Source: Ferroglobus placidus DSM 10642
GTDB lineage: Archaea; Halobacteriota; Archaeoglobi; Archaeoglobales; Archaeoglobaceae
Direction of reading: 5' to 3'
Assembly (NCBI RefSeq): GCF_000025505.1
Contig: NC_013849.1
Location: forward strand, 540,001 to 572,000
DNA: 32,000 nt
Shown here one piece after another: positions 1 through 31,188 of this stretch (position 1 is its first letter; each line of letters opens with the position of its first letter). The notes beneath the pieces are model-generated. The model did no database searches and was not told where the DNA came from. It saw only the letters and a program-made list of their open reading frames with translations. Made by a program: the position numbers and the translations under genes.

Positions 1-61
1 TCTTACTACATCTTCTGCAAACTCTTGTAGCAACTCTTTTTTTGCAAATCTGACAGATCAT
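1..61 (-). CDS. Partial CDS (5' end only, continues past window start): small zinc-ribbon-like protein
   Basis: The reverse-strand ATG at 61-59 overlaps the thi4 stop codon (ATGA, 61-58). It translates to [20 protein letters not shown]..., which has two CxxC pairs. The ORF runs off the window edge. Confidence 0.35.
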
Positions 62-831
62 TTTTTGAGATCGAACATGATCTGCTCAGCCACCTTCCTT
101 CCGCTCAGAAGCATCCCTCCGAAAATCGGTCCCATTCTCGGTAAGCCGTAGACTGCTGAAACAGCCATTCCCGCCACGTACAAACCATCCACGACTTTTC
201 CCGTTTTTTCGACAACGAGCTTCTCAGAAAGCTCGCTGTAAGCTGATTTCTCTCCAGCCACGTATATCTCAAGCTCCGGGATTTTTCTCGCAGCGACGCT
301 CACAACTTCGGCATCGTGTCCAGTGGCATCGACAACAGCCTTGCTCTCTATCATGAGCGGATCAACGTGAAGTCCGGCTATTTGCACCGCACTCCACTGG
401 ACGAGAACTCCGGAAATTCTTAACGGCTCTGGGCGGTAGATTACGTCATCTACGGTAACTCCTAAAATTACTTTCGCTCCGCTGTCTATAGCTCCAGCAG
501 AAAGCTTCGCAAGCATTTCAGCAGCGTCTATCACGTAAAGTCCATCTTCGACTTCCCTCGTTTTTATCCCGAACTCCTCTGCTATTTCCTTAGCTTCTTT
601 CTCAACAACTATTTTGTGGAAGAGCATTCCTCCTCCGCCTATGCCTCCACCAAAGCTCAGCCTCCTTTCGAAGACGACGACGTCGAAGCCGAAGTCTGCT
701 AAGTAATGAGCGGCAGTCAGTCCTGCGGGTCCGGCGCCGACTACGACTACGTCGGTCTCGCTTATCTCCTCCCACTCCTTCGCAGCCTCTCTTACGATCA
801 CTCTCGTTATGTTTTTCTCGCTGAAGGGCAT
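58..831 (-). CDS. thi4: Thiazole synthase Thi4 (archaeal type, no cysteine in the whole protein)
   Basis: The protein is 257 aa. It has a dinucleotide-binding [14 protein letters not shown] motif, a GGGIGGGGM glycine run, and the [10 protein letters not shown] and GMAV...[14 protein letters not shown] motifs typical of Thi4/THI4. Confidence 0.9.
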
Positions 832-840
832 GTTGGGATT

Positions 841-1434
841 TTAGGAGATGAAGTATAAAACACTATTCGTTACGAAGTAAACTCCGAAAATTGCGAAAAT
901 CGAAGCGGAAAAAATTTCGAGCTTCCTTTTCAGTCCAGCGTATTTGCTCAAGCGATGCGAAGCAAAAGAAACAAATCCGAGCCAACCGAAGTCGGCTGAT
1001 TCGTGAACGAGAACGAAAAGAACCAATCCGATCGACCCGAACTCGTAGGAGAGCGATATCAAAGAGAAACCTACCGTTAGCCACCACATTATGAAGTAAG
1101 GATTAAGGGCGGTGAGAATTATCCCGGTCATCGTACCCCTAACCTTTCTCTCGCTATCAGTTTTGCTCTTAAACTCTTCGTAGGAGAGGTATAACAGGAA
1201 AAGTCCTCCTACTAGAGCGATAACTGCTTTTAAGTTCTCCGTTACGTGGAAACCTGCGAAATAGAGGGAAATTATTAGAGGTATTTCCACGATCGCGTGC
1301 CCAGCCGAGATTTTAAATCCAGAAAACGGATTCTTCAATCCCTCTGATAGCGTTGCGGCAAACAGCGGACCGGGAGAGAGAACGCCGCTCAAGGATATCG
1401 TGAATACCATCGCCAAGTATAGGGGAAAATCCAT
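841..1434 (-). CDS. LysE/RhtB-family exporter-like membrane protein
   Basis: The protein is 197 aa with about 6 hydrophobic segments and an N-terminal LSPGPLFA motif typical of the LysE family. It lies 9 nt upstream of thi4 on the same strand. Confidence 0.7.
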   Translation of the reverse strand: MDFPLYLAMVFTISLSGVLSPGPLFAATLSEGLKNPFSGFKISAGHAIVEIPLIISLYFAGFHVTENLKAVIALVGGLFLLYLSYEEFKSKTDSERKVRGTMTGIILTALNPYFIMWWLTVGFSLISLSYEFGSIGLVLFVLVHESADFGWLGFVSFASHRLSKYAGLKRKLEIFSASIFAIFGVYFVTNSVLYFIS

Positions 1435-1484
1435 GAAATGTTGGGAAAGCTAAAACTTTAAAATCGTTTTCTTAACAATTCTTC

Positions 1485-1691
1485 ATGGACAGTCTGTTTA
1501 AAAAGAAGCTGGACAGACTTGTGGAAATAATTGAGGAGGACGACTTGCCATTCAAATCGAAGGATTTCAAGCTCGGCTTGCTTTACGGCTACTACTGGGC
1601 GTTCATAGAGCTATTCTTCTCGAGAAAGCCAAACGAGGAGGAGAAGAGGGATTTTGTGAAGTACATCGAAAATCTGAAGTTTAAAGCCTGA
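1485..1691 (+). CDS. Hypothetical small protein (68 aa)
   Basis: An ATG ORF in an otherwise unoccupied gap, convergent with hef. I recognise no family. Confidence 0.3.
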   Translation: MDSLFKKKLDRLVEIIEEDDLPFKSKDFKLGLLYGYYWAFIELFFSRKPNEEEKRDFVKYIENLKFKA

Positions 1692-1694
1692 TTT

Positions 1695-3980
1695 CTAATT
1701 TTTAGCTTCGTCGAAGCTGTTAATTTGGTCACTTTCCTCTTCGATAAAGATTTTGTCAGCCTCGTCGTACTTTGTCGACATGAGCTTTCTTATTCTTTCC
1801 GCCGTTTTTCTTCCCACGTTTTTTACTTTCATCAACTCTTCGACGCTCGCCGTCGCTATTCTCTCTATCGTCTGAAATTCTTTGAGCAGATTCTTCGCTA
1901 TAACCGGTCCTACGTTTGAGATCGCTGAAACTATGTACTCCATCTCGTCTTTGAGCGTTCTCTTGCTCTTCCCGGAATGTAAAGCTACCGGTCTTTCCCT
2001 GTACTCTTGCTCCCTCCTCGCTATCGTCAAAAGAAGCTCGGCAGTATCGCTTTCATTTGCCGAAAACAAAATTGGAACTCCTATGTCAACGGCTATAGCT
2101 GATAAAGCTCCTCTCACCGCGTTGGGATTCACGTTTCTCTTCGTGTATAGACCATTGCCCTCTATTATCAGCAGCGCTTTGGGATAGGCTTTTTTCAAAT
2201 TGATAAGATTTCCGAAGAGGTCTCTCTCCTTGTTTATCAGGCTTTCAAGGAAATCTTCTACGGTTTTTCTTTCAACAGCAACTCTGTCGCTAAGAACGTA
2301 GTCGCCAACGTCGAGTTTTTCAACTTTAACCTTGGCTCCGAGCTCTATCAACTTTTTCACTACACCGCTCTTCATTTCTCTGGAGTCGACGTAGATTAGT
2401 GGAGAGGCTATGAAGTCGAGGAGAGTTTTCGTCTCAGCCTTTTCCAACCTTTCTTTTTCAATTTCCTTTTCGAGCTCGTACTTTATGCGGTAAACGGTGT
2501 CGTACATGAGTTTCTCCTTTCTAAGACTTGCGTAGTAGTAAGCTTCGTCCCTCGTTCCTTTCGTTATAAGTACGACTATTCTCCCCTCTCTCCCTCTGCC
2601 GGTTCTTCCTTTTCGCTGTATCGCTCTTATCTCTGAAGGAACGGCTTCGTAGAAAACGACAAGATCTGTCTCCGGAATGTCCAGCCCTTCCTCTCCGACG
2701 CTCGTGGCTATTAGAACTTTCACATCTCCTCTCCTGAACATCTCAAGAACTCTCAGCTGCTCTTTTTGACTCATTCCAGCATCTTCCTCCCTTTTAGCCT
2801 GCCCTATGAACTTCGAAGCCGGAAACTTCTGGGAGACGATTTTCAGGAGCTTTTCCGCCGTGTCTCTGAAATTCGTGAAAACTATAACTCTCGAATCCGG
2901 ATTTTTCTCGAATTGCTCCTCGAGGATTTCCATGAGCTTGTTAACTTTCGGATGTTCGTCTTTTATTTTTGCTATTCTTACAATTCCTTCTCTGAAAACC
3001 GGATCTTCGAGTAGGTTCTTAGCTGCTTTACTTCCTCTGCTCCTCCCCTCTTTCAGCAACCTCTTCAAGTATTTTTTCGCCGCCTCGACACCCTGAGTTT
3101 CTATCAGCTCCACCGCATGGTAAACTTTCAGCACTTCGGCAAGAATTGAAGAAGCTTCGTAGTAAACCTGATCTCCGCTTTCGACAGCTTGAGCCTGAAC
3201 GAGCTCTTGTAAAGTTAGAAGCTCTTTTTTCGAAGAAAAATCCACGTCGAAGCCGAGTCTTTCGAGCCTCTTCAACCTGATTTCTATAACTTTTTCGAAA
3301 GCTTCTTTCGCCTTTTCGAGCTCTTCCGGCATGTCGACTTTTACCCACTCGATTTTCTTCTCCGCTATGTACTTCCTAACATCGGGATCGTACTCAGTTC
3401 GTATCTCTATGTTTTCTATGAAGAGATTCTTCACAACCTCTTTTATCCTCTCCGGGTCGCTTCCGGGGGAAGCTGTAATCGCGAGTATCAGCGGATTTTT
3501 ACTTTCTTCAACAAACCTTCTGGCTATGAAAACGTAGGAGTAATTTCCAACAGCCCTGTGAGCTTCATCGAATACCGCAAGCACGAAATCGCTGAGGGTG
3601 AGCCTTCCAGATATTATGTCGTTTTCGATAACTTGCGGAGTCGAAACGATTACTCTCGCTTTCTCGTACATTCTTTGTCTCTTCTCCGGAGGAATTTCTC
3701 CCGTGAAAGAGACGATCTCTTCTTCGTTTATGTTGAGGGTTCTTTTCAGAAAGAAAGCGTGCTGCTCGACGAGGGGTTTTGTTGGAGCTAAAAAGAGCAC
3801 TTTCCCGTCAAGTTTGTGGAGCCTCGAAGCTATAACGAGCAAAGCCACTACGGTTTTTCCCAAACCGGTAGGTAAAACTACGAGGGTGTTCTTTAACAAA
3901 GCTGATGCTGCTAAAGCTAACTGATAGCTTCTTCTTTCCACCGCTCTCGGCTTTACGAGGGGGTGCGAAACGAACTCCAT
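1695..3980 (-). CDS. hef: Hef: SF2 helicase fused to an ERCC4/XPF-type nuclease and a C-terminal HhH2
   Basis: The protein is 761 aa. It has Walker A PTGLGKT, a DEAH box (VFDEAHRA), TASPG, helicase motif VI QRKGRTGR, the ERCC4 signature GDYVLSDRVAVERKTVEDF, and a C-terminal helix-hairpin-helix pair (VGPVIAKNLL...VKNVGRKTAERI). Confidence 0.9.
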   Translation of the reverse strand: MEFVSHPLVKPRAVERRSYQLALAASALLKNTLVVLPTGLGKTVVALLVIASRLHKLDGKVLFLAPTKPLVEQHAFFLKRTLNINEEEIVSFTGEIPPEKRQRMYEKARVIVSTPQVIENDIISGRLTLSDFVLAVFDEAHRAVGNYSYVFIARRFVEESKNPLILAITASPGSDPERIKEVVKNLFIENIEIRTEYDPDVRKYIAEKKIEWVKVDMPEELEKAKEAFEKVIEIRLKRLERLGFDVDFSSKKELLTLQELVQAQAVESGDQVYYEASSILAEVLKVYHAVELIETQGVEAAKKYLKRLLKEGRSRGSKAAKNLLEDPVFREGIVRIAKIKDEHPKVNKLMEILEEQFEKNPDSRVIVFTNFRDTAEKLLKIVSQKFPASKFIGQAKREEDAGMSQKEQLRVLEMFRRGDVKVLIATSVGEEGLDIPETDLVVFYEAVPSEIRAIQRKGRTGRGREGRIVVLITKGTRDEAYYYASLRKEKLMYDTVYRIKYELEKEIEKERLEKAETKTLLDFIASPLIYVDSREMKSGVVKKLIELGAKVKVEKLDVGDYVLSDRVAVERKTVEDFLESLINKERDLFGNLINLKKAYPKALLIIEGNGLYTKRNVNPNAVRGALSAIAVDIGVPILFSANESDTAELLLTIARREQEYRERPVALHSGKSKRTLKDEMEYIVSAISNVGPVIAKNLLKEFQTIERIATASVEELMKVKNVGRKTAERIRKLMSTKYDEADKIFIEEESDQINSFDEAKN

Positions 3981-4019
3981 CTAAGCATCAAATTTTCTTT
4001 AGCTTAAAAAAACGTGTCG

Positions 4020-4841
4020 CTAAAGTTCGACGTCGTAGAGCTTTTCGATGTTTTCCTTGCAAATCTTGTTCACGAAATCCTCATCGTAACCGAGTTTGAG
4101 CAGCTCTTTGATTTTCCTCGGCACGGTTCTTGGACCTAAAACAGCTCCTGGTCTACTTCTGTCGTCTATGTAGTCAGATTCGACGACGAATCTATCTCCA
4201 AGCTCCGCCGCTTTTTTTACGTTGTCTCCCATAGCTATTACCGAGGGGAAGATGCCTATCTCCTCGAATTCTTTTACTGCCGGAGGTGCGAAGTGTCTGA
4301 TCACCTTCTCCCTCTTCAATCCAACTTTTTTCGCCATTTCCGCAACTTCCATCATCCCCTCTTTCGTGTAGCTTTCCATGTGAAGCTGAACTGCACAGCC
4401 GACATCTTTTGCTACTTCGAAAGCGAAAGTCATGACTTCGTTGCTACTCTTCCAGACGTAATCGCTCACCTCGTAGTGCGGTCTTCCGGACTTTATAGCC
4501 ACAGCCTTCCCTTCCTCAACGAACTTTCCGGCTATTTCCAACGCTTCTTTCATGATTTCGACGGCTCTATCTACTCCCCACTTTTGAGAGAGTATCGTTA
4601 TCTCAGCAGGATGAACGGCTAAAACAGCGTAAGCTTTCACGATCTCGTTAGCCTTCTCCACAAGTTTTACGTGCTCCTCGAAAATCTGAACAAAGTCTTT
4701 TCCCGAAGAAGGTAAAATTCCGTAGTGAGAGCTGAGCAACGAAACGAGAAAAACGTGCGTTCCTCCAGCTTTTTTAAACTCCTTCAAAGCCTTCAGCCTG
4801 AGGTGGTTGTAGAGGTGCATGTGGTTGTCCGTTATCACCAT
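4020..4841 (-). CDS. TatD-family metal-dependent hydrolase
   Basis: The protein is 273 aa with an N-terminal DNHMHL (HxH metal site), downstream His/Glu/Asp ligand candidates (VHPAE, LHMES, ESDY), and TIM-barrel amidohydrolase-like spacing. Confidence 0.72.
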   Translation of the reverse strand: MVITDNHMHLYNHLRLKALKEFKKAGGTHVFLVSLLSSHYGILPSSGKDFVQIFEEHVKLVEKANEIVKAYAVLAVHPAEITILSQKWGVDRAVEIMKEALEIAGKFVEEGKAVAIKSGRPHYEVSDYVWKSSNEVMTFAFEVAKDVGCAVQLHMESYTKEGMMEVAEMAKKVGLKREKVIRHFAPPAVKEFEEIGIFPSVIAMGDNVKKAAELGDRFVVESDYIDDRSRPGAVLGPRTVPRKIKELLKLGYDEDFVNKICKENIEKLYDVEL

Positions 4842-5125
4842 GCTCGAAAATGAAGTTGGGCTGTATTTATACTCGACTAATTTCTAATTTGATGCGATTA
4901 CCCTTTGGCTATGCTAAGCGAAAGAAAAAAATTTTGCAGAGACTTCGGAAAAGCATACTTTTGCAAGTAAGCGTTGATATGTTATTCAGATTGGGTAACC
5001 GATTAAACAGATTTCCGATCCAGATTAGATTGGTTACAAAAGAAAATTTTATTTTTATTAGTTTATTTAATAAAATTAGCTTTTATAATTTGTATTTTCT
5101 CATCATTATCATCATAATACGAAAA

Positions 5126-5140
5126 TTTTAAGTATTTAAA
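5126..5140 (+). promoter_or_regulatory. Candidate TATA box for the 809-aa gene
   Basis: The sequence ttttaagtatttaaa ends a 299-bp AT-rich intergenic region. Its spacing of ~25 nt to the second in-frame ATG (5159) would give a leaderless mRNA starting MLAGRVLLSLLALLILVGTALG. Confidence 0.3.
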
Positions 5141-7570
5141 ATGTCAAAACGGTATATTATGCTGGCAGGGAGAGTATTGCTCTCCCTACTAGCACTATTG
5201 ATATTAGTGGGCACAGCCTTAGGAGAAGAGCCAACAAAGAACAACGTTTCAATCAACACGACACCAGATCTCTGGTTGAGCAATGGAATTATAGGCATAG
5301 ACTTTCATTCGTGGGGATCAGACAATTTTCAGTATCCTTTGGGTTCGAACAACCTGTGGTATGGGGGAGGAATAAGATTTGCAATAAGATATGATGGGGT
5401 GTTTAAGTGGAGCCATAATGGCTGGCTACCATCAGCTCCAGCGCTTTCAGTTGTAGAATCCATGCATCTTGTAGATGATACGCCTGAAAAGAAGGTTGCA
5501 GTTGGAGTTGTTGCCGATGCTAATATAGAAATTAAAACAGAAGTTACGCTTCTCAAAGATAAAAAATGGGTTGCGGTGATTTACACGATTAAAAACAAAG
5601 CGAATCAGTCGCTTTCTGTTAAGTTCTACCAAGGGGCAGACTTTGATGTCTATCATATGTCATTTTGGAACGATGCCGGAAAATATGATCCAGAGCTAAA
5701 CCTTCTATATCAGTGGGATACCAGAGGCCATCCATACGTTGGAATCGCATCACCGCTGAAGCCCACGAAGTACGACGTAACCTATTGGTGGAGTATGTGG
5801 AACAGGATAAGAAGTGACTCGCTGGCGAACGGCACGAGCTATAGCGGAGATGTTGGTGTTGCATTTGAGTGGGACCTCGGAACACTTCATCCCGGAGAGG
5901 AGAGGGTTATTCCGGTGATAATAGCAGCTGGCTCGAGTTTGGAAGAACTCAAAAGTGAGGTCGCGGAAGGGTTGAACTTCTTGGCTCCCAAACCGTATAT
6001 CGAATGGGTTAAAGTAGTTCCGGAAACTCCTGAAATGCTCGAAGAGTATACTATTCTCGCAAGCGTTAGGAATCCGAGCGATAAGCCAGTAACTGTGACG
6101 TTGTGGTGCAACGAAACTGGATTGCTCGTTGAATACGACGACCAGCTTTTGATTCCTCCAGCCAATAAGAGTCAGACCTTGACGATTCCACCTCACAGCA
6201 ATGTAACTTTCAGCTTCAAGTACAAGCACTACTGGAGGTGGTTGAAGCCTTTTGAAATTATTACGGGAAGTGATATAAATACTGTGAAAGAAATTCTGAA
6301 ATTAGTACCAAACGAGAAAATACCAGAAATTATCCGTTCATCGCTAAAAATTTGGGAGATAGTTGAATATGCCACACTTACAGGAGCAAAACCAACAATA
6401 ACCTATCACTATAACTTGCGATCAAACGAAGTATTGAATTCACAAAACATAAGCACCAGAGTAGTAGTTCCATTAGTAAAAATCGATTCCCTTATATATT
6501 CTATAGGAATCGGAGTAATAAGTGGAACATTTACAGGAGTTGGGTTATCAGGAATTTTCGCACCAGAACCAACAACAACGGCCATCGGAGGAATTCTTTT
6601 AATTGGTGAAGGTCTCACATCTTTACTTGTTAAAGAGGGAATTAAAATAGCAACCGATCCAGACTCAGACTACACACAACCAGTTGTCCTCGAACCGATA
6701 ACAATCCCTGAACTCGATGAATATCCTGACAACCCCGTCAAAGATATGGTTAAACAGTACACTTTACTCGCATCCGAAGCGAAAGCTTTCAGCGAAGCGT
6801 GGGCTAAATACCTTGGAGCTAAAATGGTGAAGGACACGGAATGGGAGAGAAGACAGCTCGTATCAGCTTACTACTACCTGAATCTTTTAGTGAACGATTA
6901 CGCTGTTTTAAAAGAAAAAGCTGAAGTGGCAATAGATTACCTGCAATCGATGGGGTTGAATATAACTGAAGAAGATGTAAGTTACGTAAAGAAAAACATA
7001 ACAGAGAACGGATTACCAGAGATAGAGGTGGAACTACTGAAAAAATTCGGATTAAGCAACGAAGAAATCAACGCAGCCAAGGATATAGTTTTAATGCTAC
7101 CGAACGAAACAATCATCAACTACAATGAAACAATTTTAGGAGGGATGGAAGTTCAGCAAACTGTCCTGGGCTGGATTGCAAATAACTTAACGACAGAGAT
7201 AAACGAAGTTGGATTTGTAAACGCAACCGTAGATGTAGACCCAGACACGATAAATCTGAAGTCAAAAGGCAAATGGATAACAGCGTACATCGAAATACCG
7301 GGCTATGATGTAAGCAAGATAAACATCTCTACAGTTTACCTGAACGGAATAATACCAGCTATAAACGATCCAAAGTACGGATTTGTGAGAAACCCTGAGA
7401 TCAAGGATAGAGATGGAAATGGCTATCCAGAGCTGATGGTCAAATTCGACAGGCAAGAAGTCAAGAGGGTGCTGAGGGGAGGAAACGTTACACTGTTCGT
7501 GATTGGAGAGATTGATGACAAGTTCTTTGTCGGAAATGGTGAGATAAGGGTCATGCTGGGGTGTTGCTGA
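5141..7570 (+). CDS. Large secreted, probably N-glycosylated surface protein carrying copy 1 of the C-terminal repeat module
   Basis: The protein is 809 aa, or 803 aa from ATG 5159. It has an N-terminal signal-like helix ending TALG/EEP and more than 15 N-x-S/T sequons. A Gly-rich hydrophobic stretch sits mid-protein, followed by a helical region and then the C-terminal module VNATVDVDPDTINLKSKGKWITAYIEIPGYDVSKINISTVYLNG...DRDGNGYPELMVKFD...NVTLFVIGEID. Confidence 0.8.
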   Translation: MSKRYIMLAGRVLLSLLALLILVGTALGEEPTKNNVSINTTPDLWLSNGIIGIDFHSWGSDNFQYPLGSNNLWYGGGIRFAIRYDGVFKWSHNGWLPSAPALSVVESMHLVDDTPEKKVAVGVVADANIEIKTEVTLLKDKKWVAVIYTIKNKANQSLSVKFYQGADFDVYHMSFWNDAGKYDPELNLLYQWDTRGHPYVGIASPLKPTKYDVTYWWSMWNRIRSDSLANGTSYSGDVGVAFEWDLGTLHPGEERVIPVIIAAGSSLEELKSEVAEGLNFLAPKPYIEWVKVVPETPEMLEEYTILASVRNPSDKPVTVTLWCNETGLLVEYDDQLLIPPANKSQTLTIPPHSNVTFSFKYKHYWRWLKPFEIITGSDINTVKEILKLVPNEKIPEIIRSSLKIWEIVEYATLTGAKPTITYHYNLRSNEVLNSQNISTRVVVPLVKIDSLIYSIGIGVISGTFTGVGLSGIFAPEPTTTAIGGILLIGEGLTSLLVKEGIKIATDPDSDYTQPVVLEPITIPELDEYPDNPVKDMVKQYTLLASEAKAFSEAWAKYLGAKMVKDTEWERRQLVSAYYYLNLLVNDYAVLKEKAEVAIDYLQSMGLNITEEDVSYVKKNITENGLPEIEVELLKKFGLSNEEINAAKDIVLMLPNETIINYNETILGGMEVQQTVLGWIANNLTTEINEVGFVNATVDVDPDTINLKSKGKWITAYIEIPGYDVSKINISTVYLNGIIPAINDPKYGFVRNPEIKDRDGNGYPELMVKFDRQEVKRVLRGGNVTLFVIGEIDDKFFVGNGEIRVMLGCC
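7220..7432 (+). repeat. 213-bp perfect direct repeat, copy A (inside the 809-aa gene)
   Basis: I compared it base by base with 8221-8433 and found 213/213 identical. Mismatches occur immediately on both sides. Confidence 0.95.
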
Positions 7571-7851
7571 TGAAGACCTTTTTTATTTTTATCGCAACAG
7601 TAGTAGCTCTGATATTTATGGTCTACAGCCTCGGTAGTTTTATAGATACCCTATTACGAAATCCTGAATCTCTTTCTCTATCTTCTTTCGCAACCACGAT
7701 TTTCTGGATTGCTGTTTGGGCATATATGAATAAATATTTACTCGAATATAGAGGGATTAAAGTAAAAACTAGAATATTTTTATTGGGTATATTATTAGTT
7801 CTAGCGACGTTTATAGGAGCTCAAATAGTAATATCTATCTTTGCAAGTTGA
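7570..7851 (+). CDS. Small 3-TM membrane protein, translationally coupled to the 809-aa gene
   Basis: The ATG at 7570 overlaps the upstream stop (TGATG). A GGGGTG SD-like element lies 7 nt upstream. An alternative GTG start is at 7561. There are three hydrophobic helices. Confidence 0.6.
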   Translation: MKTFFIFIATVVALIFMVYSLGSFIDTLLRNPESLSLSSFATTIFWIAVWAYMNKYLLEYRGIKVKTRIFLLGILLVLATFIGAQIVISIFAS

Positions 7852-7974
7852 AGTAGTGGTACCTCGCTATGTAGGTTACGGAAGGAGATAATAATATCAT
7901 ATAACAAAAAATTTATTATAAAGTAGTATAATCTATTACAGCACATAATACTCGTCTTAACAGAATTTGTAACG

Positions 7975-8565
7975 ATGAACGAGATCGTTATAGAAGTTGT
8001 TAATATACCTAAATTTCTTGATGAGTTTATCAATTACGCGAGGAAATTGGGTTACAGCGACGAAGATATCGCCAACTTCACGAACATGCTCATCGCCGTG
8101 AACGACTCGCTCGTAATCAACTACGATAAAACGATCCCGAGTCTGTTCAACCACACAAACTATTTCGTCAACCAAGTGGTGGAGACGTTAAATAGAGATA
8201 CATCTAAGTTCATTACTGTGAACGCAACCGTAGATGTAGACCCAGACACGATAAATCTGAAGTCAAAAGGCAAATGGATAACAGCGTACATCGAAATACC
8301 GGGCTATGATGTAAGCAAGATAAACATCTCTACAGTTTACCTGAACGGAATAATACCAGCTATAAACGATCCAAAGTACGGATTTGTGAGAAACCCTGAG
8401 ATCAAGGATAGAGATGGAAATGGCTATCCAGAGATGACGGTTAAGTTTGATAAAAGTAAATTAAAGAAGATACTCAGGCACGGAAATGTCACACTCTTCG
8501 TCATAGGTGAAGTGGATGGCATATACTTCATTGGGGATGATGTGGTTAGAGTATTGCAGGGGTAA
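7975..8565 (+). CDS. Module copy 2: 196-aa paralog of the C-terminal ~200 aa of the 809-aa protein, with no signal peptide
   Basis: The N-terminal part aligns weakly with residues ~620-690 of the 809-aa protein (LGYSDEDI..INYDKTI vs FGLSNEEI..INYNETI). The C-terminal module includes the 213-bp identical block. Confidence 0.65.
   Translation: MNEIVIEVVNIPKFLDEFINYARKLGYSDEDIANFTNMLIAVNDSLVINYDKTIPSLFNHTNYFVNQVVETLNRDTSKFITVNATVDVDPDTINLKSKGKWITAYIEIPGYDVSKINISTVYLNGIIPAINDPKYGFVRNPEIKDRDGNGYPEMTVKFDKSKLKKILRHGNVTLFVIGEVDGIYFIGDDVVRVLQG
8221..8433 (+). repeat. 213-bp perfect direct repeat, copy B
   Basis: Identical to 7220-7432, offset by exactly 1,001 bp. Confidence 0.95.
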
Positions 8566-8570
8566 TTGCT

Positions 8571-9149
8571 ATGACTGATAGAGAAAAATTCGTGCTTTTA
8601 CAATTCTTTCAATTTTTAATAGTGTGTGCTTTAGCACTGGTGTATGCAGTGACGCATCCCTACGAGTACAGAATTGTCTGGACAGTACCATTAATGACAT
8701 CCATTCTTTCGATTATGGTTCGTATAATTCTTCAAGAATATGTATTTGAACTTCGCGATGAGCGTGGGAGACCGACATCAAGCTGGAACAAATGGCTTTG
8801 GGAGACTGGAACTAAGTACAAGTACTATAAAGTTAGAGATTTTCCAAGCTGGTTTATGCCTTTGCACATAGCAGGATTCATGTTTTTAAGCGCTTTTTAC
8901 TGTTTAGCTATTCCAACTATCATAACTGGCAAATTCATATTCCTCGAGCCAGAATATGCCCATCTTTCAATACCAATTGTAATCTACTACCACTTTGTAA
9001 CAGATTTTGAAGGCTGGAAGAGGTTGTTAAAAGATTATAAAACATTTTACTGCCACATCGCCTATACCACAGCTGGTGCAGTATTCTGGTACCTTTTGAT
9101 GGCAATAGGAGTTTTTCCTAAGCCTTTCGATCTTATGCAACAGTATTAA
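8571..9149 (+). CDS. Multi-TM membrane protein (192 aa), partner of module copy 2
   Basis: It starts 5 nt after the copy-2 stop and has 4-5 hydrophobic helices. It is a paralog of 9551-10135, sharing the motif EYAHLSIPIVIYYHFVTDFEGWKR. Confidence 0.75.
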   Translation: MTDREKFVLLQFFQFLIVCALALVYAVTHPYEYRIVWTVPLMTSILSIMVRIILQEYVFELRDERGRPTSSWNKWLWETGTKYKYYKVRDFPSWFMPLHIAGFMFLSAFYCLAIPTIITGKFIFLEPEYAHLSIPIVIYYHFVTDFEGWKRLLKDYKTFYCHIAYTTAGAVFWYLLMAIGVFPKPFDLMQQY

Positions 9150-9189: not shown

Positions 9190-9554
9190 TTGGGTATCCA
9201 CGAGCTCGTCACAGTGAACGCAAGCGTAGATATAGACCCAGACACGATAAATCTGAAGTCAAAAGGCAAATGGATAACAGCTTGGATAGAAATACCGAGT
9301 TACGACGTTAGTAAGATAAACATCTCCTCAGTTTACTTAAATGGTATTGTTCAAGCAGAAAACAATCCCAAATATGGATTTGTCAGGCATCCAAAGATCG
9401 AGGACATAGATGGAGATGGCTATCCAAGCTTATGGTCAAGTTCGATAGACAGAAGGTCAAGAAGGCGTTAAGAGAAGGAAAAGTTACAATGTTCGTTATC
9501 GGAAAGATCGATGGTAAATACTTTGTTGGCAAAGATTTGGTGAGGATAATATGA
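9190..9554 (+). pseudogene. Module copy 3: stand-alone module ORF interrupted by a 1-nt deletion
   Basis: A TTG start at 9190 is preceded by the SD GAGGTGA (9176-9182). The reading frame breaks after GYP at ~9427, where -AGCTTATGG replaces the GAGCTGATGG of copies 1 and 2. The +1 frame continues LMVKFDRQKVKKALREGKVTMFVIGKIDGKYFVGKDLVRII and ends at 9554. Confidence 0.7.
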
Positions 9555-10135
9555 GAAGTCAGCAGGAGGTAGTCCTCTATACCCAATTACTTCAATTCTT
9601 TTTTATACTAATCCTTAGTGTTATATTTGGATTCGGATTGCCTTACGAAGCCCGCTTCGTTTGGTTATATCCTTTTGCAACCTCAGGGTTATCGTGTGCA
9701 GCGCGAGTGCTTATCGAACAGACTAAGTACGATCTGGTTGATAAGGAAGGGAGGAAACTTTCCAAGTGGAGAACGAGCGTCTACGAACAGTGGTCAAAAG
9801 GTTACAGAGGTGTAAAGGTAAGAAATCTGCCAGACTGGTTTCTGCCAATTCACATTGCTTTCTTTACAATCATGAGCGTAGCCTATGTGCTGATAGCGTC
9901 ATTTATCGCTGGTGAATTTGTATTTTTCAAAGCAGAATATGCACATCTGTCAATTCCTATCGTCATTTTCTACCACTTCGTAATCGACTTCGAAGGCTGG
10001 AAGAGGATAATCACAAATCCAAAGGCTTTATACTACAGCTTCGCTTACTCAACTGCAGGCGTAATTTTCTGGTTTGTGATGATGCAAATCGGTGTTTTCC
10101 CGAGCTTCAAGGAGTTGTTCGCAGTAACTAAATGA
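9551..10135 (+). CDS. Multi-TM membrane protein (194 aa), partner of module copy 3
   Basis: The ATG at 9551 overlaps the restored stop of copy 3 (ATATGA). A GGTGAGG SD lies 5 nt upstream. It is a paralog of 8571-9149. Confidence 0.75.
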   Translation: MRSQQEVVLYTQLLQFFFILILSVIFGFGLPYEARFVWLYPFATSGLSCAARVLIEQTKYDLVDKEGRKLSKWRTSVYEQWSKGYRGVKVRNLPDWFLPIHIAFFTIMSVAYVLIASFIAGEFVFFKAEYAHLSIPIVIFYHFVIDFEGWKRIITNPKALYYSFAYSTAGVIFWFVMMQIGVFPSFKELFAVTK

Positions 10136-10144
10136 GAATTTTGA

Positions 10145-10387
10145 CAGAAGTTCAATGAAGATTCTAACGACGTAAGTGAAATAAATGTCCTTGCAACTTC
10201 TTTAATGATGTTTGTCAAACCTCCAGAGATTAAGGATAGGGATGGAAACAGTTATCCAGAATTGATGGTAAAGTTCGACAAGCAGGAGGTAAAAAAGATA
10301 CTTAAAGAAGGTAACGTTACGCTGTTCGTTATCGGAAAGATTGATGGTAAGTTCTTCGTAGGGGAAGATGGGGTTGGAGTGAAATAG
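10145..10387 (+). pseudogene. Module copy 4: truncated relic with an internal deletion
   Basis: The in-frame translation is ...NDVSEINVLATSLMMFVKPPEIKDRDGNSYPELMVKFDKQEVKKILKEGNVTLFVIGKIDGKFFVGEDGVGVK. It lacks the N-terminal half of the module and the NGIIPAINDPKYGF segment. No partner gene follows. Confidence 0.5.
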
Positions 10388-15204: not shown

Positions 15205-16389
15205 TCATAAAGCAACTTCTTCTTCCCAGGGTGGTAGCACTTTTACGAGAATGTAGAGGATTACGAACGGCACAGCCATTATAGCCATCGCTATAGAAGC
15301 GCTTTCTGGACCGAAAAACGGCATCACGTAGTGGCTGAAACCTCTGAAGGTTTTAGAAAGTATTTGTCCTCCGATGACCACGTTCCACCTCATTGCGAAA
15401 ACTCCTATCAAAGTTAGAAGAGACGCCAGCGTATATACCGGCACCCTTGCTGTCAGCGATTTGAAGCTTTTTGCCAGCACTATAAGGATCACTGGAACTA
15501 TTGCACCAAGCACCATTTGAACGACGACGAAGCTGAAGAATATCTTTTCGTTAATTAGCCTCACTATCGCTTTGAATCCCTCTTCTCTTGTGTAGAATAT
15601 GTGACCTATCTCCATGAACTCCAAGCCGAGGTCGAGGATGTAGGAGTAAAGTAAATAGCCGGCAAGCTTGTCAACGCATTTTTCATCTGGCTTGCTTCCT
15701 CGTAAGTAGCTACCAAAAACGTAGATGACAAGAACCAAGGCAATTCCGGAAACCATGGCTGAGAAGAGGAATATTATTGGCATTAGCGGTGAGCTCCACC
15801 AAGGATTAGCTTTCACGCTTCCGAAAATGAATCCTACGTAGCCGTGTAAGAAGGCTGCTGAAGGCAATCCTATGATCGTAATGACGTTCACGATCTTTTC
15901 ATCCCTTTTCATAGCTTTTTCACTGATATCGTAATCGCCGAGGGTTAAGATTTTGTATATAATTCTTCTCAGTCCTTTTTTGGTCTTAGCCCATTCGACT
16001 ATGTCTTTCCTGTAGTCGAAGTATATCTCTATCAGTAACACCACAAGCAGGTACCAAGCGTAGACGAAGCCGAACATTGCCATGGCTGAAGATGTATTCG
16101 GTGTGAACATGATTTCGAAAGCTCTTTCTGGATGTCCTAAGTGAGCTATTAGAGGAAGAGGTGCTGTGAGCAGGAAAGCGAGGGCTGTAAGGAGTGAAAG
16201 TCTGTAGGTTGGCTTCACTTCTTTCACGTTGAATATTCTTTCGAGCGAAGCTACTATGAAAGCTCCCGCAACAAGCCCGGTGATGTAAGGATATACCGCT
16301 ATGAGCACGCTCCAGTAGATTTCGACCTCGTTTGGGTAAATGAATCCCTCTACGAGCTTTAAAGCCTCTTGAAGAATCTCGCTCATCAC
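15205..16389 (-). CDS. NrfD/PsrC-family integral membrane quinone-interacting subunit
   Basis: The protein is 394 aa with ~9-10 TM helices. Its start overlaps the upstream FeS gene stop, with a strong SD (GGAGGTGAGGTGATG). Confidence 0.8.
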   Translation of the reverse strand: MMSEILQEALKLVEGFIYPNEVEIYWSVLIAVYPYITGLVAGAFIVASLERIFNVKEVKPTYRLSLLTALAFLLTAPLPLIAHLGHPERAFEIMFTPNTSSAMAMFGFVYAWYLLVVLLIEIYFDYRKDIVEWAKTKKGLRRIIYKILTLGDYDISEKAMKRDEKIVNVITIIGLPSAAFLHGYVGFIFGSVKANPWWSSPLMPIIFLFSAMVSGIALVLVIYVFGSYLRGSKPDEKCVDKLAGYLLYSYILDLGLEFMEIGHIFYTREEGFKAIVRLINEKIFFSFVVVQMVLGAIVPVILIVLAKSFKSLTARVPVYTLASLLTLIGVFAMRWNVVIGGQILSKTFRGFSHYVMPFFGPESASIAMAIMAVPFVILYILVKVLPPWEEEVAL

Positions 16390-17144
16390 CTCACCTCCGA
16401 ATCGATGCCTATGTAGAACACTCTCGGCTTCGTACCTTGTTCGGGCTTGAGAACGGTAACCGGATTTTCCTCTATCTGTTTTAGGATCCTTTCATCATCG
16501 GCTCTTCCGAATTTCCTCGCTTGAGTCGGACATGCCAATACGCATGCCGGAAGCAAACCCTTCGTTATTCTGTGGTAGCACCAAGTACATTTGTCAGCGG
16601 TCCCTCTTCTGCTCTCTCTCGGACCGTTGGCAGGATATAAATATCGGGCTCCGTAGGGGCAGGCTTGAATGCAGTATCTGCAGCCTAAGCAGTACTTTTC
16701 GTCAACCAAAATCACTCCGTCCGGAGTTTTGTAGGTTGCTCCAACTGGGCAAACCTGGACGCATGGAGGATCTTTGCACTGGTTGCAGAGCTTTGGAACG
16801 AAGTAGCTCTTTACAACTTCTTTCTCATCGTAGATTTCTGGGAAACCGTCGAAACCACCGTTTGGCGAGTCAACCTTAGGTTCTTCCTCTCCTTTCAACC
16901 ACACGTATCTTTCCACCCAAGTTCTGAAGTAGTACGGCTTCAAAGGAACGTCGTTTTCTATTTTGCAAGCTCTTACGCACCTTCCACAGCCTATGCACTT
17001 TCTTGTATCAACAACGAATATGTACCCCGGATGACTGCTTTTTTGCACGTTCTCTTCTTTCTCATTACTCAATTTCGCTAAGCTAACGCCAACCAAATTT
17101 GCTAAAACAGCTGAAGAGGCGAGAAGAAACTTTCTCCTCTTCAT
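16386..17144 (-). CDS. Tat-exported 4x[4Fe-4S] ferredoxin subunit (NrfC/PsrB/DmsB-like)
   Basis: A twin-arginine signal MKRRKFLLASSAVLA is present. There are four Cys clusters: CIGCGRCVRAC, CNQCKDPPCVQVCP, CLGCRYCIQACP and CTWC...ACVLACP. Confidence 0.85.
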   Translation of the reverse strand: MKRRKFLLASSAVLANLVGVSLAKLSNEKEENVQKSSHPGYIFVVDTRKCIGCGRCVRACKIENDVPLKPYYFRTWVERYVWLKGEEEPKVDSPNGGFDGFPEIYDEKEVVKSYFVPKLCNQCKDPPCVQVCPVGATYKTPDGVILVDEKYCLGCRYCIQACPYGARYLYPANGPRESRRGTADKCTWCYHRITKGLLPACVLACPTQARKFGRADDERILKQIEENPVTVLKPEQGTKPRVFYIGIDSEVR

Positions 17145-17145
17145 A

Positions 17146-17610
17146 TCACCTCACCGGGTCGTGGGGATCATGACATTTCGTGCAGTTCCAGTTCTCCCCC
17201 CTTCCGTGCTCGATCGTTATCTGAGGAAATTCTTTTGGCTTTGAGGAGCTTTTTGCATGGCAGCTCATACAGAACTCCGTTATGCTTGGATAAGCGTTGT
17301 AGCCGAGGATCTCATCTTTAGCTTCGTGCTCTTCCGGATTTTCTACATGAGCCTTAAGCAACCCATGACAGCTCATGCAGCTTATTCCTTTATGCCTTCC
17401 AACGCTCCACAAAACGTACTCGTTCACGTGGCAATTAAAGCACTCGAAATTTTCCCCTATCTTGGTTTGGATTTTTGTGATCTCTTTAATCGAATCTGCT
17501 CTGTAATGACCTAATTCACCGAAGCTCGGTGGGACAAAGACAGCTCTCGCGGCAAAGAATATCAAAACGCCGGCTATGTAAAGCAGAAGAATTCTCCACG
17601 TCACTTTCAT
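17146..17610 (-). CDS. Membrane-anchored tetrahaem c-type cytochrome
   Basis: The protein is 154 aa with an N-terminal TM helix and four CxxCH motifs (CFNCH, CMSCH, CMSCH, CTKCH). Confidence 0.85.
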   Translation of the reverse strand: MKVTWRILLLYIAGVLIFFAARAVFVPPSFGELGHYRADSIKEITKIQTKIGENFECFNCHVNEYVLWSVGRHKGISCMSCHGLLKAHVENPEEHEAKDEILGYNAYPSITEFCMSCHAKSSSKPKEFPQITIEHGRGENWNCTKCHDPHDPVR

Positions 17611-17641
17611 GGCTCCGCTCCCTCAAAAATAAAAAATTGAT

Positions 17642-19192
17642 TTACGATCGTCTCCTGGTCTTTCCTGCTATCGCAAGGGCTGCAAGCAAAGCTATCGATC
17701 CTGCTGTTAACTCCACAGCTTTGAAGTTCGTAGCAGCTTCGCTTACCTGACTTTCAGCTTTTTCAGCTCTAACTGCTTTCTCCTCCGCGCTCTCTTTCGG
17801 AACACTCACCTCACTGCCATCTTTCATTGTTGAAAGCTTTGGAGTTTCTCCTCTCAGCTTCTTCTGGGTTTCGTACCAGTCTATCATTCTTCCGAGTTTG
17901 TCCATGACTGTATCGACAGCACCCATCCAGTGTGTATAATCTGGACCCATCATCGAAGCACCCATTCTCCATCTTCTTCCCTCGTGATGCCAGATGTAGT
18001 ACCACATTATCTCTGGGAATTCGTCTATTGGATTGCTTGGATCAGCCAATCCCTCCTCGTAGATTTTATCGAGAAGAGCTTTTGCAAACTTGGCTGTTTT
18101 GTTGTAATCTTCGAGCACTTTTTCATAGCTCTCGAAGTACTGCTCAACCCATCTCGGGCTGTGACATGCCTGGCAGATCTTCTTCATTCTTTCTCTGTTC
18201 TGCTCAGCCAACTGCTTATCGGGAGTGTATCCCGTAACCTTGTTTGGATTGCTGCTCTGATATGTGTTAAATTTGCCTTGAATCTCCCATTTAAGCATCG
18301 CTCCAACATCATGCGTTTGCGGAACTATCACCTTTCCCGAAGAGTCCGCTATTCCACCCATGTGGCAAACGCTGCAAGTCGGGGCTGAGAAATCAACTCC
18401 CACCTTCCACGGTTTTGCCTCCCAGTTCCAGTTTTCTTCGTCAGCCATGTATCTCGCTCCGTGGTGACTGCTTTCGTAGATTTCAATTTGCGGATGGTCG
18501 TAACCGAGATGGCATTTACCGCAAGTTTCCGGCATTCTCGCTTCTTTTATGCTGAACTGGTGCTGTGTGTGGCAAGATGAACAGCTTCCCAAGCTGCCAT
18601 CTGGATTGACCCTTCCTATTCCCATGTTAGGCCAACCTTGCAGTTTCTCACCGTCATAGTAAACGTAACTTCCATGGCATTCCATGCATCCAAGCACTTG
18701 GTTCTCGTGGTTGATCTCATCGAGAAGCTCGGTTTTCGCAAATATTCCACTTTCCGGATAAAGAGGCGTTACCTTATCCCTTATGAACTCCCTCGGTGGA
18801 TTTTGCTTAGCCACTTCTAAATCGAGCGGATTAAGACCTTTCTCTACCATTGCCTTCCACCAAGGGAATAGCGGACCGTTGACGGCTGCGAAAGCGTGTT
18901 TGCTTTTTGAAAACGTTTCGTACTCGTACTTGTGGCATTCGGCACACTTTTTCGGGGAAACAACTGGAGACACTTTGTATCCATGATGCTCTAAGCCGAA
19001 CTCTCCTTCCTTAGCTTCGTGACAGACGCTGCAGGTAACTCCATATTTCCCGTGTTTGCTCTTTTCCCAGTCTTTGACTATGTTCGGCGTTTGTTTGTAG
19101 TGGCAGGCTATGCAGAGCTCTTCTGCAGCCGCTGGAAAGAGTAGAACTGCTGCAGCAAAAAACAGCACGGCAATTTTCCCGGAGACTTTCAT
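17642..19192 (-). CDS. Octahaem c-type cytochrome, hydroxylamine-oxidoreductase (HAO)-like family, with a C-terminal TM anchor
   Basis: There are eight CxxCH motifs (CIACH, CSVCH, CAECH, CMECH, CSSCH, CGKCH, CSVCH, CQACH). A Sec signal MKVSGKIAVLFFAAAVLLFPAAA is present, and HHEGRRWRMGASMMGPDYTHW looks HAO-like. The protein ends with a Glu/Lys/Ser-rich linker and the TM helix LTAGSIALLAALAIAGKTRRRS. The ATG at 19192 is the preferred start, with a TTG alternative at 19213. Confidence 0.85.
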   Translation of the reverse strand: MKVSGKIAVLFFAAAVLLFPAAAEELCIACHYKQTPNIVKDWEKSKHGKYGVTCSVCHEAKEGEFGLEHHGYKVSPVVSPKKCAECHKYEYETFSKSKHAFAAVNGPLFPWWKAMVEKGLNPLDLEVAKQNPPREFIRDKVTPLYPESGIFAKTELLDEINHENQVLGCMECHGSYVYYDGEKLQGWPNMGIGRVNPDGSLGSCSSCHTQHQFSIKEARMPETCGKCHLGYDHPQIEIYESSHHGARYMADEENWNWEAKPWKVGVDFSAPTCSVCHMGGIADSSGKVIVPQTHDVGAMLKWEIQGKFNTYQSSNPNKVTGYTPDKQLAEQNRERMKKICQACHSPRWVEQYFESYEKVLEDYNKTAKFAKALLDKIYEEGLADPSNPIDEFPEIMWYYIWHHEGRRWRMGASMMGPDYTHWMGAVDTVMDKLGRMIDWYETQKKLRGETPKLSTMKDGSEVSVPKESAEEKAVRAEKAESQVSEAATNFKAVELTAGSIALLAALAIAGKTRRRS

Positions 19193-19257
19193 GTTATATG
19201 TTGAAGCGAACAACGTATTTAAAATTTACGAAAAATTTCGGAAATAAAAAGTTTAAT

Positions 19258-28005: not shown

Positions 28006-28494
28006 GTGTACGTTGAAGGGGACACGCTAATAGTTGACGAGAAAATTGTTGAGGGGAATTTGACTCACAAAGTAATTAGGTTCAATCTTCCTTGCAAAGT
28101 TAAGGGATTCGTTAAAGCTGAGAAAGTGGAGTGTGTGAACCTCGAAGTTTTCTCCTTCATTCAAGCGGAAGACGTGAGGGCTGCGAAACACATCTTTTCT
28201 TACAGCTACATAAAAGCCGGGGTAATCTCAGCCGGCGGATTCATCAAAGCGAGGGAGATATTCGCAAGAGAAGTCGAGGCGGAGTGGTATATTGAAGCTG
28301 AAAAAATAAGAGCTGGTAAAATAGAGGCTAGGAAGTCAATTCTTGCCAAATCCATAGAAGCTGAGAAGGTTATTGCCGGAACGACTGTAAAGGCTGAAGA
28401 GATAAAGTGCTCTTACCTAAAAGCTTGGGAGTTGGTGGCGAAAAAAGCTGAAGTTGAGCGAATGGACGTGAAAAAGCTAAAATATAAAGCTTAA
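28006..28494 (+). CDS. Repeat protein with ~10-11-residue periodicity (bactofilin-like beta-helix candidate)
   Basis: GTG start, 162 aa. About eight consecutive units end in (I/V)x(A): FIKAREIFA / REVEAEWYIEA / EKIRAGKIEA / RKSILAKSIEA / EKVIAGTTVKA / EEIKCSYLKA. Confidence 0.5.
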   Translation: MYVEGDTLIVDEKIVEGNLTHKVIRFNLPCKVKGFVKAEKVECVNLEVFSFIQAEDVRAAKHIFSYSYIKAGVISAGGFIKAREIFAREVEAEWYIEAEKIRAGKIEARKSILAKSIEAEKVIAGTTVKAEEIKCSYLKAWELVAKKAEVERMDVKKLKYKA

Positions 28495-29091
28495 GAGGTT
28501 GAGTATCAAATCCGAAATGCTCTGAATGATTCCTCTCTCCTCTTTTACTTCAACTTTCTCGATTTTTTCGGCTGAGACTTTCTTTTCTTCCGTCGGTGGA
28601 ATGTAGTCTTTTATCTTCTCTCCGTGGCAAGCTGTGCAAATTTCATCGAGAACTCTTGAGTGAACGGCGTGGGGATTGCTGCCGTGGCATTCCGTGCAGA
28701 GATTTGTTTCGGGTTTTGAAGCGACGTCTCCGTGGCAGGTCGAGCAGCTCAGCTTGTAGTGGGGATCGTGAACGTGAATTCCCAGATTTCTTTTATCGTA
28801 CTCGCTGCCCACGTGGCATTTAATGCAAACGTCGACTCCGTGTAATTCCTCAATCTGCCTCTGATCTCTGAGGTTTAATTTGGTGTTGTGGCACGGCGTG
28901 CAGGTGAGGAACTTCTCCAGATCTTTTCCAGTTAACGTGTTTATGTGGCAGGGCATGCAAATTTTCGCTTTGTGCCAGTCTGGCATGAGACCTCGATATT
29001 CTTCATACAACGCTACTGTTGGGTTCGTCAGAATGAAAAATAAACTCAATATCGAAAATGCCACAGTTAGTGTGCTTCTGCTCACAGACAA
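28477..29091 (-). CDS. Hexahaem c-type cytochrome with N-terminal signal/anchor
   Basis: The protein is 204 aa with six CxxCH motifs (CMPCH, CTPCH, CIKCH, CSTCH, CTECH, CTACH) and a hydrophobic N-terminus. The start is TTG. Confidence 0.85.
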   Translation of the reverse strand: MSVSRSTLTVAFSILSLFFILTNPTVALYEEYRGLMPDWHKAKICMPCHINTLTGKDLEKFLTCTPCHNTKLNLRDQRQIEELHGVDVCIKCHVGSEYDKRNLGIHVHDPHYKLSCSTCHGDVASKPETNLCTECHGSNPHAVHSRVLDEICTACHGEKIKDYIPPTEEKKVSAEKIEKVEVKEERGIIQSISDLILNLLSFIF

Positions 29092-30944: not shown

Positions 30945-31188
30945 CGCTCTCCGATTACGAGATACTCGTCTTAAAAAAGTTAAAAAAGGGAAAAGTGTTG
31001 GGGAGATTGCTAAGGAGCTTGGTTTGCCTGAGCCGATAGTAAGAATAGCGATAGAGAGAGTAAAAAATAAAGAGCTGCCAAAAAAAAGAATAGAATTGAC
31101 GAAAAGTGCCATATTTTTACTTATCGATGCGATAATTCTTTATGTTTTATTGAAGATATTAATAGAGGTGGCAAAATGGTTCCTTTAA
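30941..31188 (+). pseudogene. Frameshifted small gene: LuxR/sigma-R4-like HTH fused to a C-terminal TM helix
   Basis: Frame 0 reads MTLSDYEILVLKKLKKGK and then stops at 31037. The -1 frame, entered at the A/G run ~30983-30994, reads KSVGEIAKELGLPEPIVRIAIERVKNKELPKKRIELTKSAIFLLIDAIILYVLLKILIEVAKWFL*. The ATG overlaps the upstream stop (ATGA). Confidence 0.5.

Follow-up and report, generated by a model that had tools for sequence, protein, structure and literature searches.

A 213-Nucleotide Tract Shared by Two Surface-Protein Paralogs of Ferroglobus placidus Is Probably the Product of Recent Ectopic Gene Conversion

The module array and the tract shared by c1 and c2

The window analyzed here is a 32,000-nucleotide (nt) stretch of the genome of Ferroglobus placidus DSM 10642 that includes the genes Ferp_0634 to Ferp_0640 and carries four tandem copies (c1 to c4) of a sequence encoding a C-terminal immunoglobulin (Ig)-like module of ~115 amino acids (aa). 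The first 71 codons of this module are identical in c1 and c2, and this identical tract is the subject of the present analysis. Copies c1, c2, and c3 are each followed by a small membrane-protein gene, with the stop and start codons overlapping or nearly abutting. The coordinates of the features are given in Table 1.

The two copies of the tract agree at 213 of 213 positions, and one base further on either side they already differ. When the modules of c1 and c2 were compared in register over 344 nt, 48 mismatches were found, one of them at position 7219 and the other 47 past position 7432, in the 128 nt downstream of the tract. When 48 mismatches were placed at random 200,000 times, runs of identity reached 90 nt at most, and none (0/200,000) came to 213 nt or more. 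The 180 nt upstream of the tract are only 45% identical between c1 and c2 and cannot be aligned as DNA, the 128 nt downstream are 63% identical, and the offset between the two copies is constant at 1,001 nt on both sides of the tract. Part of the tract (7236 to 7284 in c1 and 8237 to 8285 in c2) belongs to a 49-nt core that is identical in c3 as well. An earlier note on this DNA, made from the sequence alone, had described a perfect 213-bp repeat with sharp edges, diverged flanks, the 49-nt core in the third copy, and unrelated partner proteins of 96 and 192 aa, and our comparisons agree with it on each of these points (for the partners, BLASTP gave an E value of 2.1).

The two edges of the tract differ in nature. 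Alignable DNA homology between the two genes, which represent the two types described below, begins at position 7216, and the left end of the tract at 7220 lies within 4 nt of it. The sharpness of the left boundary is therefore expected. The right end (7432/7433) lies inside homology that continues at 63% and is the only true internal endpoint.

Table 1. Features of the module array (positions are those of the window)
Feature	Position	Strand	Description
c1	5141..7570	+	Intact 809-aa gene; signal peptide, N-terminal domain, hydrophobic segment, type-1 helical linker, C-terminal Ig-like module
Module copy 1	7217..7567	+	~115-aa predicted Ig-like beta-sandwich with DRDGNGYPE loop; mapped by tblastn
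Tract copy A	7220..7432	+	213 nt, 71 codons, identical to tract copy B
p96 (Ferp_0634)	7570..7851	+	93 aa from the ATG at 7570; membrane protein with two transmembrane (TM) segments
c2 (Ferp_0635)	7975..8565	+	196 aa; 5'-truncated type-2 paralog without signal peptide or TM segment
Module copy 2	8218..8562	+	
Tract copy B	8221..8433	+	Identical to tract copy A
c2 tail	8434..8565	+	63% identical to c1 tail; outlier to every other copy, nonsynonymous divergence (dN) 0.23 to 0.48
p192 (Ferp_0636)	8571..9149	+	Membrane partner with multiple TM segments, 45% identical to p194
c3	9190..9554	+	Module-only, frameshifted copy, annotated as two open reading frames (ORFs)
Module copy 3	9214..9554	+	
49-nt core in c3	9233..9281	+	Identical to 7236..7284 in c1 and 8237..8285 in c2
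p194 (Ferp_0639)	9551..10135	+	Membrane partner; 80% aa identity to the partner in L085, 59% to the partner in L002
c4	10169..10387	+	Fragment that retains the 3' two-thirds of a module; a 60-aa ORF is annotated at 10205..10387
Module copy 4	10169..10387	+	
Unique flanks of tract			c1 upstream flank ends ...GGATTTGTA; c2 downstream flank starts ATGACGGTT

Probable gene conversion between old paralogs

Related loci were taken from metagenomes and metagenome-assembled genomes (MAGs) and are designated L001, L002/L003, L004, L084, L085, L086, and L089. L001 is a syntenic locus with TatD that contains both type-1 and type-2 copies, L002/L003 carry a full-length gene with a p194-like partner, L004 is an Archaeoglobales MAG, and L084 is a near-identical sister strain represented by a single metagenomic contig of 1.8 kb (REYS20-1). 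Over the 180 nt that precede the module, these sequences and those of F. placidus fall into two deep types. Type 1 consists of F. placidus c1, L004, and the first copy of L001 (82 to 86% identity within the type), and type 2 consists of F. placidus c2, L002, the second copy of L001, and L084 (78 to 84%), while identity between the types is 43 to 47%. F. placidus c1 and c2 are therefore old paralogs that predate these lineages.

Inside the tract, the proportion of synonymous differences (pS) is 0.00 between c1 and c2 over the 71 codons, compared with 0.35 to 0.9, and nearly always 0.55 to 0.9, for the other pairs of copies. The dN values between copies are only 0.04 to 0.13 in the tract, 0.1 to 0.5 in the tail, and ~0.85 between types in the linker. 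Saturated pS together with low dN indicates that the general similarity among the modules is due to constraint at the protein level, which does not account for the identity of c1 and c2.

Neighbor-joining phylogenies of the successive regions are incongruent. Upstream of the tract, the type-1 group of F. placidus c1, L004, and the first copy of L001 was recovered with 100% bootstrap support and pairs from within one genome with 0%. In the tract, c1 and c2 of F. placidus were joined with 100% support and the two copies of L001 with 98.6%, while grouping of the type-1 orthologs fell to 0%. Downstream of the tract, c1 and c2 of F. placidus were joined in only 13% of the replicates. The two copies of L001 also have in common a 3-nt deletion that is present in no other copy. 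Among the type-1 orthologs, pS is 0.33 to 0.42 upstream of the tract but 0.62 to 0.71 within it, which indicates replacement of the module after the divergence of these lineages. The nearest relative outside F. placidus changes within the tract from type-1 L004 to type-2 L002; from about 7265 to 7534, the c1 module is closest to the type-2 gene of L002 and not to its own orthologs, and the c2 tail matches nothing well. In sliding windows, c3 is a mosaic whose first ~65 nt are 96 to 98% like c1 and c2, followed by a part that is 96 to 98% like L084 and a tail that is 93 to 98% like L085. The 49-nt core common to c3 is probably a second, shorter conversion patch.

These results point to a very recent ectopic gene conversion between c1 and c2 in the F. 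placidus lineage, and we put the probability of this explanation at roughly 0.8. A non-reciprocal homologous exchange, for which the archaeal RadA pathway is the likely executor, would have copied the segment from one of the two genes into the other. The exchange would have been unable to spread to the left past the edge of DNA homology, and on the right it would have ended within the module. Several exchanges would have taken place in this array of four copies, which is in part decayed, scrambled by recombination, and interleaved with membrane-protein genes, and the one between c1 and c2 would be the most recent. The earlier note had also proposed gene conversion with concerted evolution, and had suggested comparing synonymous divergence in the module with that in its flanks among copies and related strains. 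The absence of synonymous differences between c1 and c2, set against near saturation elsewhere, the change of topology in the tract, the recurrence in L001, and the identity of only 80% between L084 and F. placidus in the tract are all in agreement with that proposal. The further claim that exchange is confined to the core of the module holds only in part, since older exchanged patches also extend through the tail.

A recent segmental duplication, in which a 213-nt piece was inserted rather than a preexisting homolog converted, would equally produce perfect identity and an abrupt left boundary. This is very unlikely, since in the alignment of c1 to c4 and their relatives the sequences on both sides of the tract are homologous and keep frame and register (63% nt identity downstream and type-specific homology at the protein level upstream), which indicates replacement and not insertion. 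Moreover, the c2 orthologs in L002, L001, and L084 already carry the module at this place, so that what was replaced was an existing segment. Selection on the nucleotide sequence itself, as might be exerted on an embedded RNA or DNA element, is exceedingly improbable as the cause of the identity; nothing beyond the identity speaks for it, and the synonymous sites of the same segment are saturated both between species and between the other copies. Rfam finds in the window only a tRNA, located elsewhere, and the antisense ORF at 7262 to 7456 is one of many chance ORFs.

The identity could also have been created during assembly. The reference genome was built from 454 reads with a mean length of 292 nt and from short Illumina reads (PMC3236036). 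A repeat of 213 nt is close to the 454 read length, and the Illumina contigs were shredded into fake reads (PMC3236036), which raises the possibility that similar but nonidentical copies were homogenized by the short-read consensus or by polishing. We regard this as highly improbable. Logan contigs from the read sets SRR3923786 and ERR15087784 are 100% identical to the window from 1 to 7249, and both end exactly at 7249, which is 30 nt inside the tract and is where a graph with k = 31 is expected to branch if an exact repeat starts at 7220. Two independent read sets thus bear the signature of a true exact-repeat edge. A contig from SRR019237 (L087) begins at 9252, 30 nt short of where the 49-nt core ends; the same contig reproduces the region of the frameshift in c3. 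For the tract, this check against independent assemblies covers the left boundary, through contig ends, and exact look-up found no contigs on record with Ferp_0635, Ferp_0634, or Ferp_0636. Given the background divergence between copies, an artefact would have had to erase ~40 differences, and the unique flanks of both copies are within reach of the reads. A wholesale assembly artefact is accordingly unlikely.

Some observations nevertheless count against recent conversion between c1 and c2 as we have described it. In principle, polishing could have removed a small number of real differences from the tract, and the support from the read sets consists of contig ends and not of reads that span the tract together with both flanks. 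With one genome for the species, donor and recipient are not distinguishable. The relatives are represented by short contigs from metagenomes, and these may be chimeric. Finally, the divergence between L084 and F. placidus starts not at the tract but at 8106, 115 nt upstream of it, where identity drops abruptly to 73 to 80%, and at least one further, unexplained replacement separates these two lineages.

Ahead of the break, up to 8105, the L084 contig is 95 to 100% identical to F. placidus, with 98.7% at 7541 to 7851 and 95% at 7975 to 8094. Over its length (1 to 1832, compared with window 7541 to 8470), it contains a module core that is 96 to 98% like that of F. placidus c3, a disrupted tail, and an acyl-CoA dehydrogenase gene at the place where F. 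placidus has p192. The break at 8106 is either a strain-level recombination breakpoint or the result of chimeric assembly, and the different structure of L084 fits a recombination-prone locus. We also considered L084 as a simple deletion product of c2 and c3, and rejected this on account of the divergence from 8106 onward, a tail that is not c3-like, and the acyl-CoA dehydrogenase gene that follows. A scan of Joint Genome Institute (JGI) metagenomes with the type-1 tail returned only distant modules and one frameshifted remnant (L089), and no c1 from a sister strain.

Deletion, cassettes, and comparison with known systems

The most plausible view of the two direct repeats is that they offer recombination a passive substrate, on which a 1,001-bp pop-out deletion could occur. 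From the coordinates, a single crossover would remove exactly 1,001 bp (7433 to 8433, comprising p96 and the 5' part of c2) and would generate a fused gene for a protein of 807 aa that ends in ...VRVLQG and is followed by the 192-aa gene; the size of the deletion, the new ending, and the change of partner agree with the earlier note. Pop-out deletion between direct repeats is the basis of marker removal in the genetics of Thermococcus, Pyrococcus, and Haloferax. Repeats of a few hundred bp or less suffice for deletion in Euryarchaeota, which makes the 213-nt repeat a plausible substrate; the pop-out constructs are engineered and under selection, however, while the F. placidus repeat is a natural one read from sequence. 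Efficient gene conversion has been described in polyploid Haloferax (PMC11276520). The 1-kb segment marked by the repeats is likely to be unstable in culture. No variant junction was found, but the deletion junction makes no new k-mer, and assemblies are blind to it.

It is another matter whether such events constitute a selected system of variation, in which truncated copies serve as cassette donors or in which a deletion acts as a switch of tail and partner, the latter having been suggested in the earlier note. The architecture does resemble an expression locus with cassettes, as an intact gene with a signal peptide (c1) is accompanied by a copy missing its 5' part (c2), a copy reduced to the module (c3), and a partial module (c4). 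The exchanges are recurrent, and the near-identical strain L084 has a different locus structure. In addition, L002 contains a natural gene (1524 to 4404) whose N-terminal body is 86% identical in nt sequence to the 809-aa gene of F. placidus and which is of type 2 from about codon 372; it is followed by a p194-like partner of the 192/194-aa type with an ATGA overlap. Both types of tail and partner can therefore serve the same kind of body, and on the sequence of L002, whole C-terminal halves together with their partners appear to have been swapped between lineages. The junction in L002, however, near codon 372 of the 809-aa gene, is far upstream of the tract, and this gene is not the predicted deletion product.

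Several lines of evidence make a selected system very unlikely. The segment exchanged is the most conserved part of the module and not a variable one, the deletion would be irreversible, and the ORFs of the window that were scanned include no recombinase, reverse transcriptase, or other dedicated machinery. A Pfam scan of 29 ORFs in the window, which took in all but one of those longer than 200 aa and left out a few, the largest being 204 aa (28477 to 29091), detected no integrase, invertase, transposase, or reverse transcriptase. Many of the family members found in relatives are plain pseudogenes, in keeping with decay and not with a maintained system. The type-1 homolog of L001 (6721 to 7434) is damaged by an in-frame TAG and a frameshift, and L089 (6001 to 6458) carries a frameshifted type-1 remnant beside a 689-aa ORF that reads into tRNA-like sequence and may represent an integrated element. 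In several Archaeoglobales, the family seems to be undergoing erosion. A more specific version, in which c1 to c4 form a surface-protein cassette system, with c1 as the expression site and the truncated copies, differing in tail and partner, as donors or deletion targets, and in which recombination in the core swaps the C-terminal end and the partner, for instance in order to escape viruses that use the protein as a receptor, is decidedly unlikely. The deletion switch of the earlier note, though arithmetically correct, is an unsupported and improbable reading.

Silent-cassette antigenic variation is known from pilE/pilS of Neisseria, vlsE/vls of Borrelia, and MgPa of Mycoplasma genitalium. As in these systems, the F. 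placidus locus has a full-length surface-protein gene beside 5'-truncated partial copies, with segmental, non-reciprocal exchange. The F. placidus case differs in that it is known from sequence alone, the segment moved is a conserved one, and intact partner genes lie between the copies. F. placidus is, moreover, a free-living hyperthermophile and has no immune system of a host to contend with; selection could instead come from viruses. Two dedicated mechanisms were considered and rejected. For a recombinase switch, no recombinase was found. A diversity-generating retroelement (DGR) resembles the locus in having two direct repeats of ~100 to 200 nt, one of them at the 3' end of a gene with an Ig-like or lectin-like C-terminal domain, but the F. 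placidus repeats are identical and both lie inside homologous coding modules. With zero mismatches, there is no adenine bias between them, and the scanned ORFs of the window include no reverse transcriptase.

The closest precedent for gene conversion between c1 and c2 is that of the tandem archaeal paralogs mtrA-1 and mtrA-2, in which recurrent gene conversion is limited to one domain (Wang et al. 2015, PMC4632066). There, too, one domain is homogenized while other parts (in that case the transmembrane domain) remain distinct, and the pattern recurs across lineages. The differences are that mtrA encodes a subunit of a core enzyme, whereas the F. placidus genes encode an uncharacterized surface module and one partner in the exchange is truncated, and that concerted evolution in mtrA has been long lasting, whereas here it is episodic, with one perfect tract and older, decayed patches. 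Conversion is also known for tufA/tufB and the rRNA operons. In broad terms, the F. placidus case is comparable to the concerted evolution that recurs among paralogs in prokaryotes (Wang & Chen 2018, PMC6053082). All of these latter cases concern highly expressed core genes homogenized over most of their length, in contrast to the ~200 nt affected in F. placidus, in a fast-evolving and partly pseudogenized family.

The locus offers a clean and well-controlled case, from a hyperthermophilic archaeon, of what is best explained as very recent ectopic gene conversion, a known phenomenon that involves no new mechanism. Related lineages show repeated and independent exchange of this one module core; throughout, the linker, the tail, and the partner genes remain distinct according to type. 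The locus also documents the fast reshuffling and erosion of a non-essential surface-protein family in the Archaeoglobales.

The module family, members of the array, and neighboring genes

In the AlphaFold model of the paralog, the module is predicted to be a beta-sandwich, with block means of the predicted local distance difference test (pLDDT) score of 78 to 96. A Foldseek search of the PDB with the module retrieved only generic Ig-like folds (best E = 1.3e-3). The module had no Pfam or NCBIfam match at E ≤ 0.1 and no meaningful sequence match in the PDB, no Pfam model covers it in nine homologs scanned at E ≤ 0.001, and Pfam and NCBIfam searches of the partner proteins likewise gave no families. 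The module family is very large, with 4,437 representative clusters in a collection of 1.84 billion proteins at a threshold of E ≤ 1e-3 and still 2,334 at 1e-10. The module ends within 15 aa of the stop codon in 53 of 81 GTDB loci. Its hosts are diverse secreted proteins of archaea and bacteria with PKD, NosD/beta-helix, CBM96, subtilase, and CarboxypepD_reg domains, and only in the Archaeoglobales subfamily is a membrane partner coupled to it. The module may be a domain for sorting or anchoring that has yet to be described. The observation of so large a family of C-terminal domains, covered by neither Pfam nor NCBIfam, may prove more widely useful than the repeat itself.

In the c1 protein, hydropathy and a sequon count place the hydrophobic segment at aa ~441 to 497 and give 16 N-glycosylation sequons, and the N-terminal domain is found on other secreted proteins as well (homologs P0018 to P0020). 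When the 809-aa sequence was used as a query of the protein collection, three matches were returned, all to the N-terminal domain and none of them c1 itself. The exact 809-aa sequence is absent from a collection of 15 billion proteins, in which the small neighbors Ferp_0634 to Ferp_0640 are all present, and the 809-aa ORF may be annotated as a pseudogene or unannotated. A literature search on Ferp_0632 to Ferp_0637 found no papers. Upstream of the gene lies an AT-rich intergenic region of 300 nt (4842 to 5140) with TATA-like motifs and only a spurious 93-aa ORF; an imperfect inverted repeat (5034 to 5053 and 5069 to 5088) is located within it. The scan for promoters and terminators used bacterial models and is uninformative for an archaeon.

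The start codon of p96 overlaps the stop codon of c1 by 1 nt (TGATG). The p96 protein shows no relationship to the type-1 partners of L001 and L004, nor to p192 and p194, which are paralogs of each other. Aligned to the full-length homolog P0002, c2 is a 5'-truncated and internally deleted remnant, the internal deletion amounting to ~29 aa relative to the full-length type-2 gene of L002, and it is preceded by an AT-rich, TATA-like stretch. In c3, a 1-nt deletion lies near 9427 (CCAGAGC to CCAAGC; window 9419 to 9436). It is probably real, because it is outside any homopolymer and is reproduced by the independent SRR019237 assembly. When the frame is repaired, the stop codon of c3 overlaps the start codon of p194 (ATGA). 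The starts of the first three modules are almost evenly spaced (1,001 nt between copies 1 and 2 and 996 nt between copies 2 and 3, from 7217 to 8218 to 9214), despite unrelated intervening sequence (p96 and linker versus p192), and this is possibly due to chance.

Other genes in the window encode Hef, TatD, a DUF554 protein, an HD protein, LonB, and a multihaem cytochrome/NrfD cluster. The Hef-type helicase/ERCC4 nuclease, a recombination and repair protein, is encoded two genes upstream of the array (1695 to 3980, minus strand), which is probably coincidental. The cluster at 15205 to 19213 (minus strand) comprises an NrfD-like membrane subunit, a 4Fe-4S protein, a cytochrome c3-like protein, and a 523-aa multihaem cytochrome. 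As the archaeon reduces Fe(III), this cluster is a candidate for one of its respiratory modules. Another secreted-protein locus is found at 29139 to 30944, where a gene for a 601-aa CARDB-domain protein is followed by one for an S24/S26 signal-peptidase-like protein (31176 to 31853).

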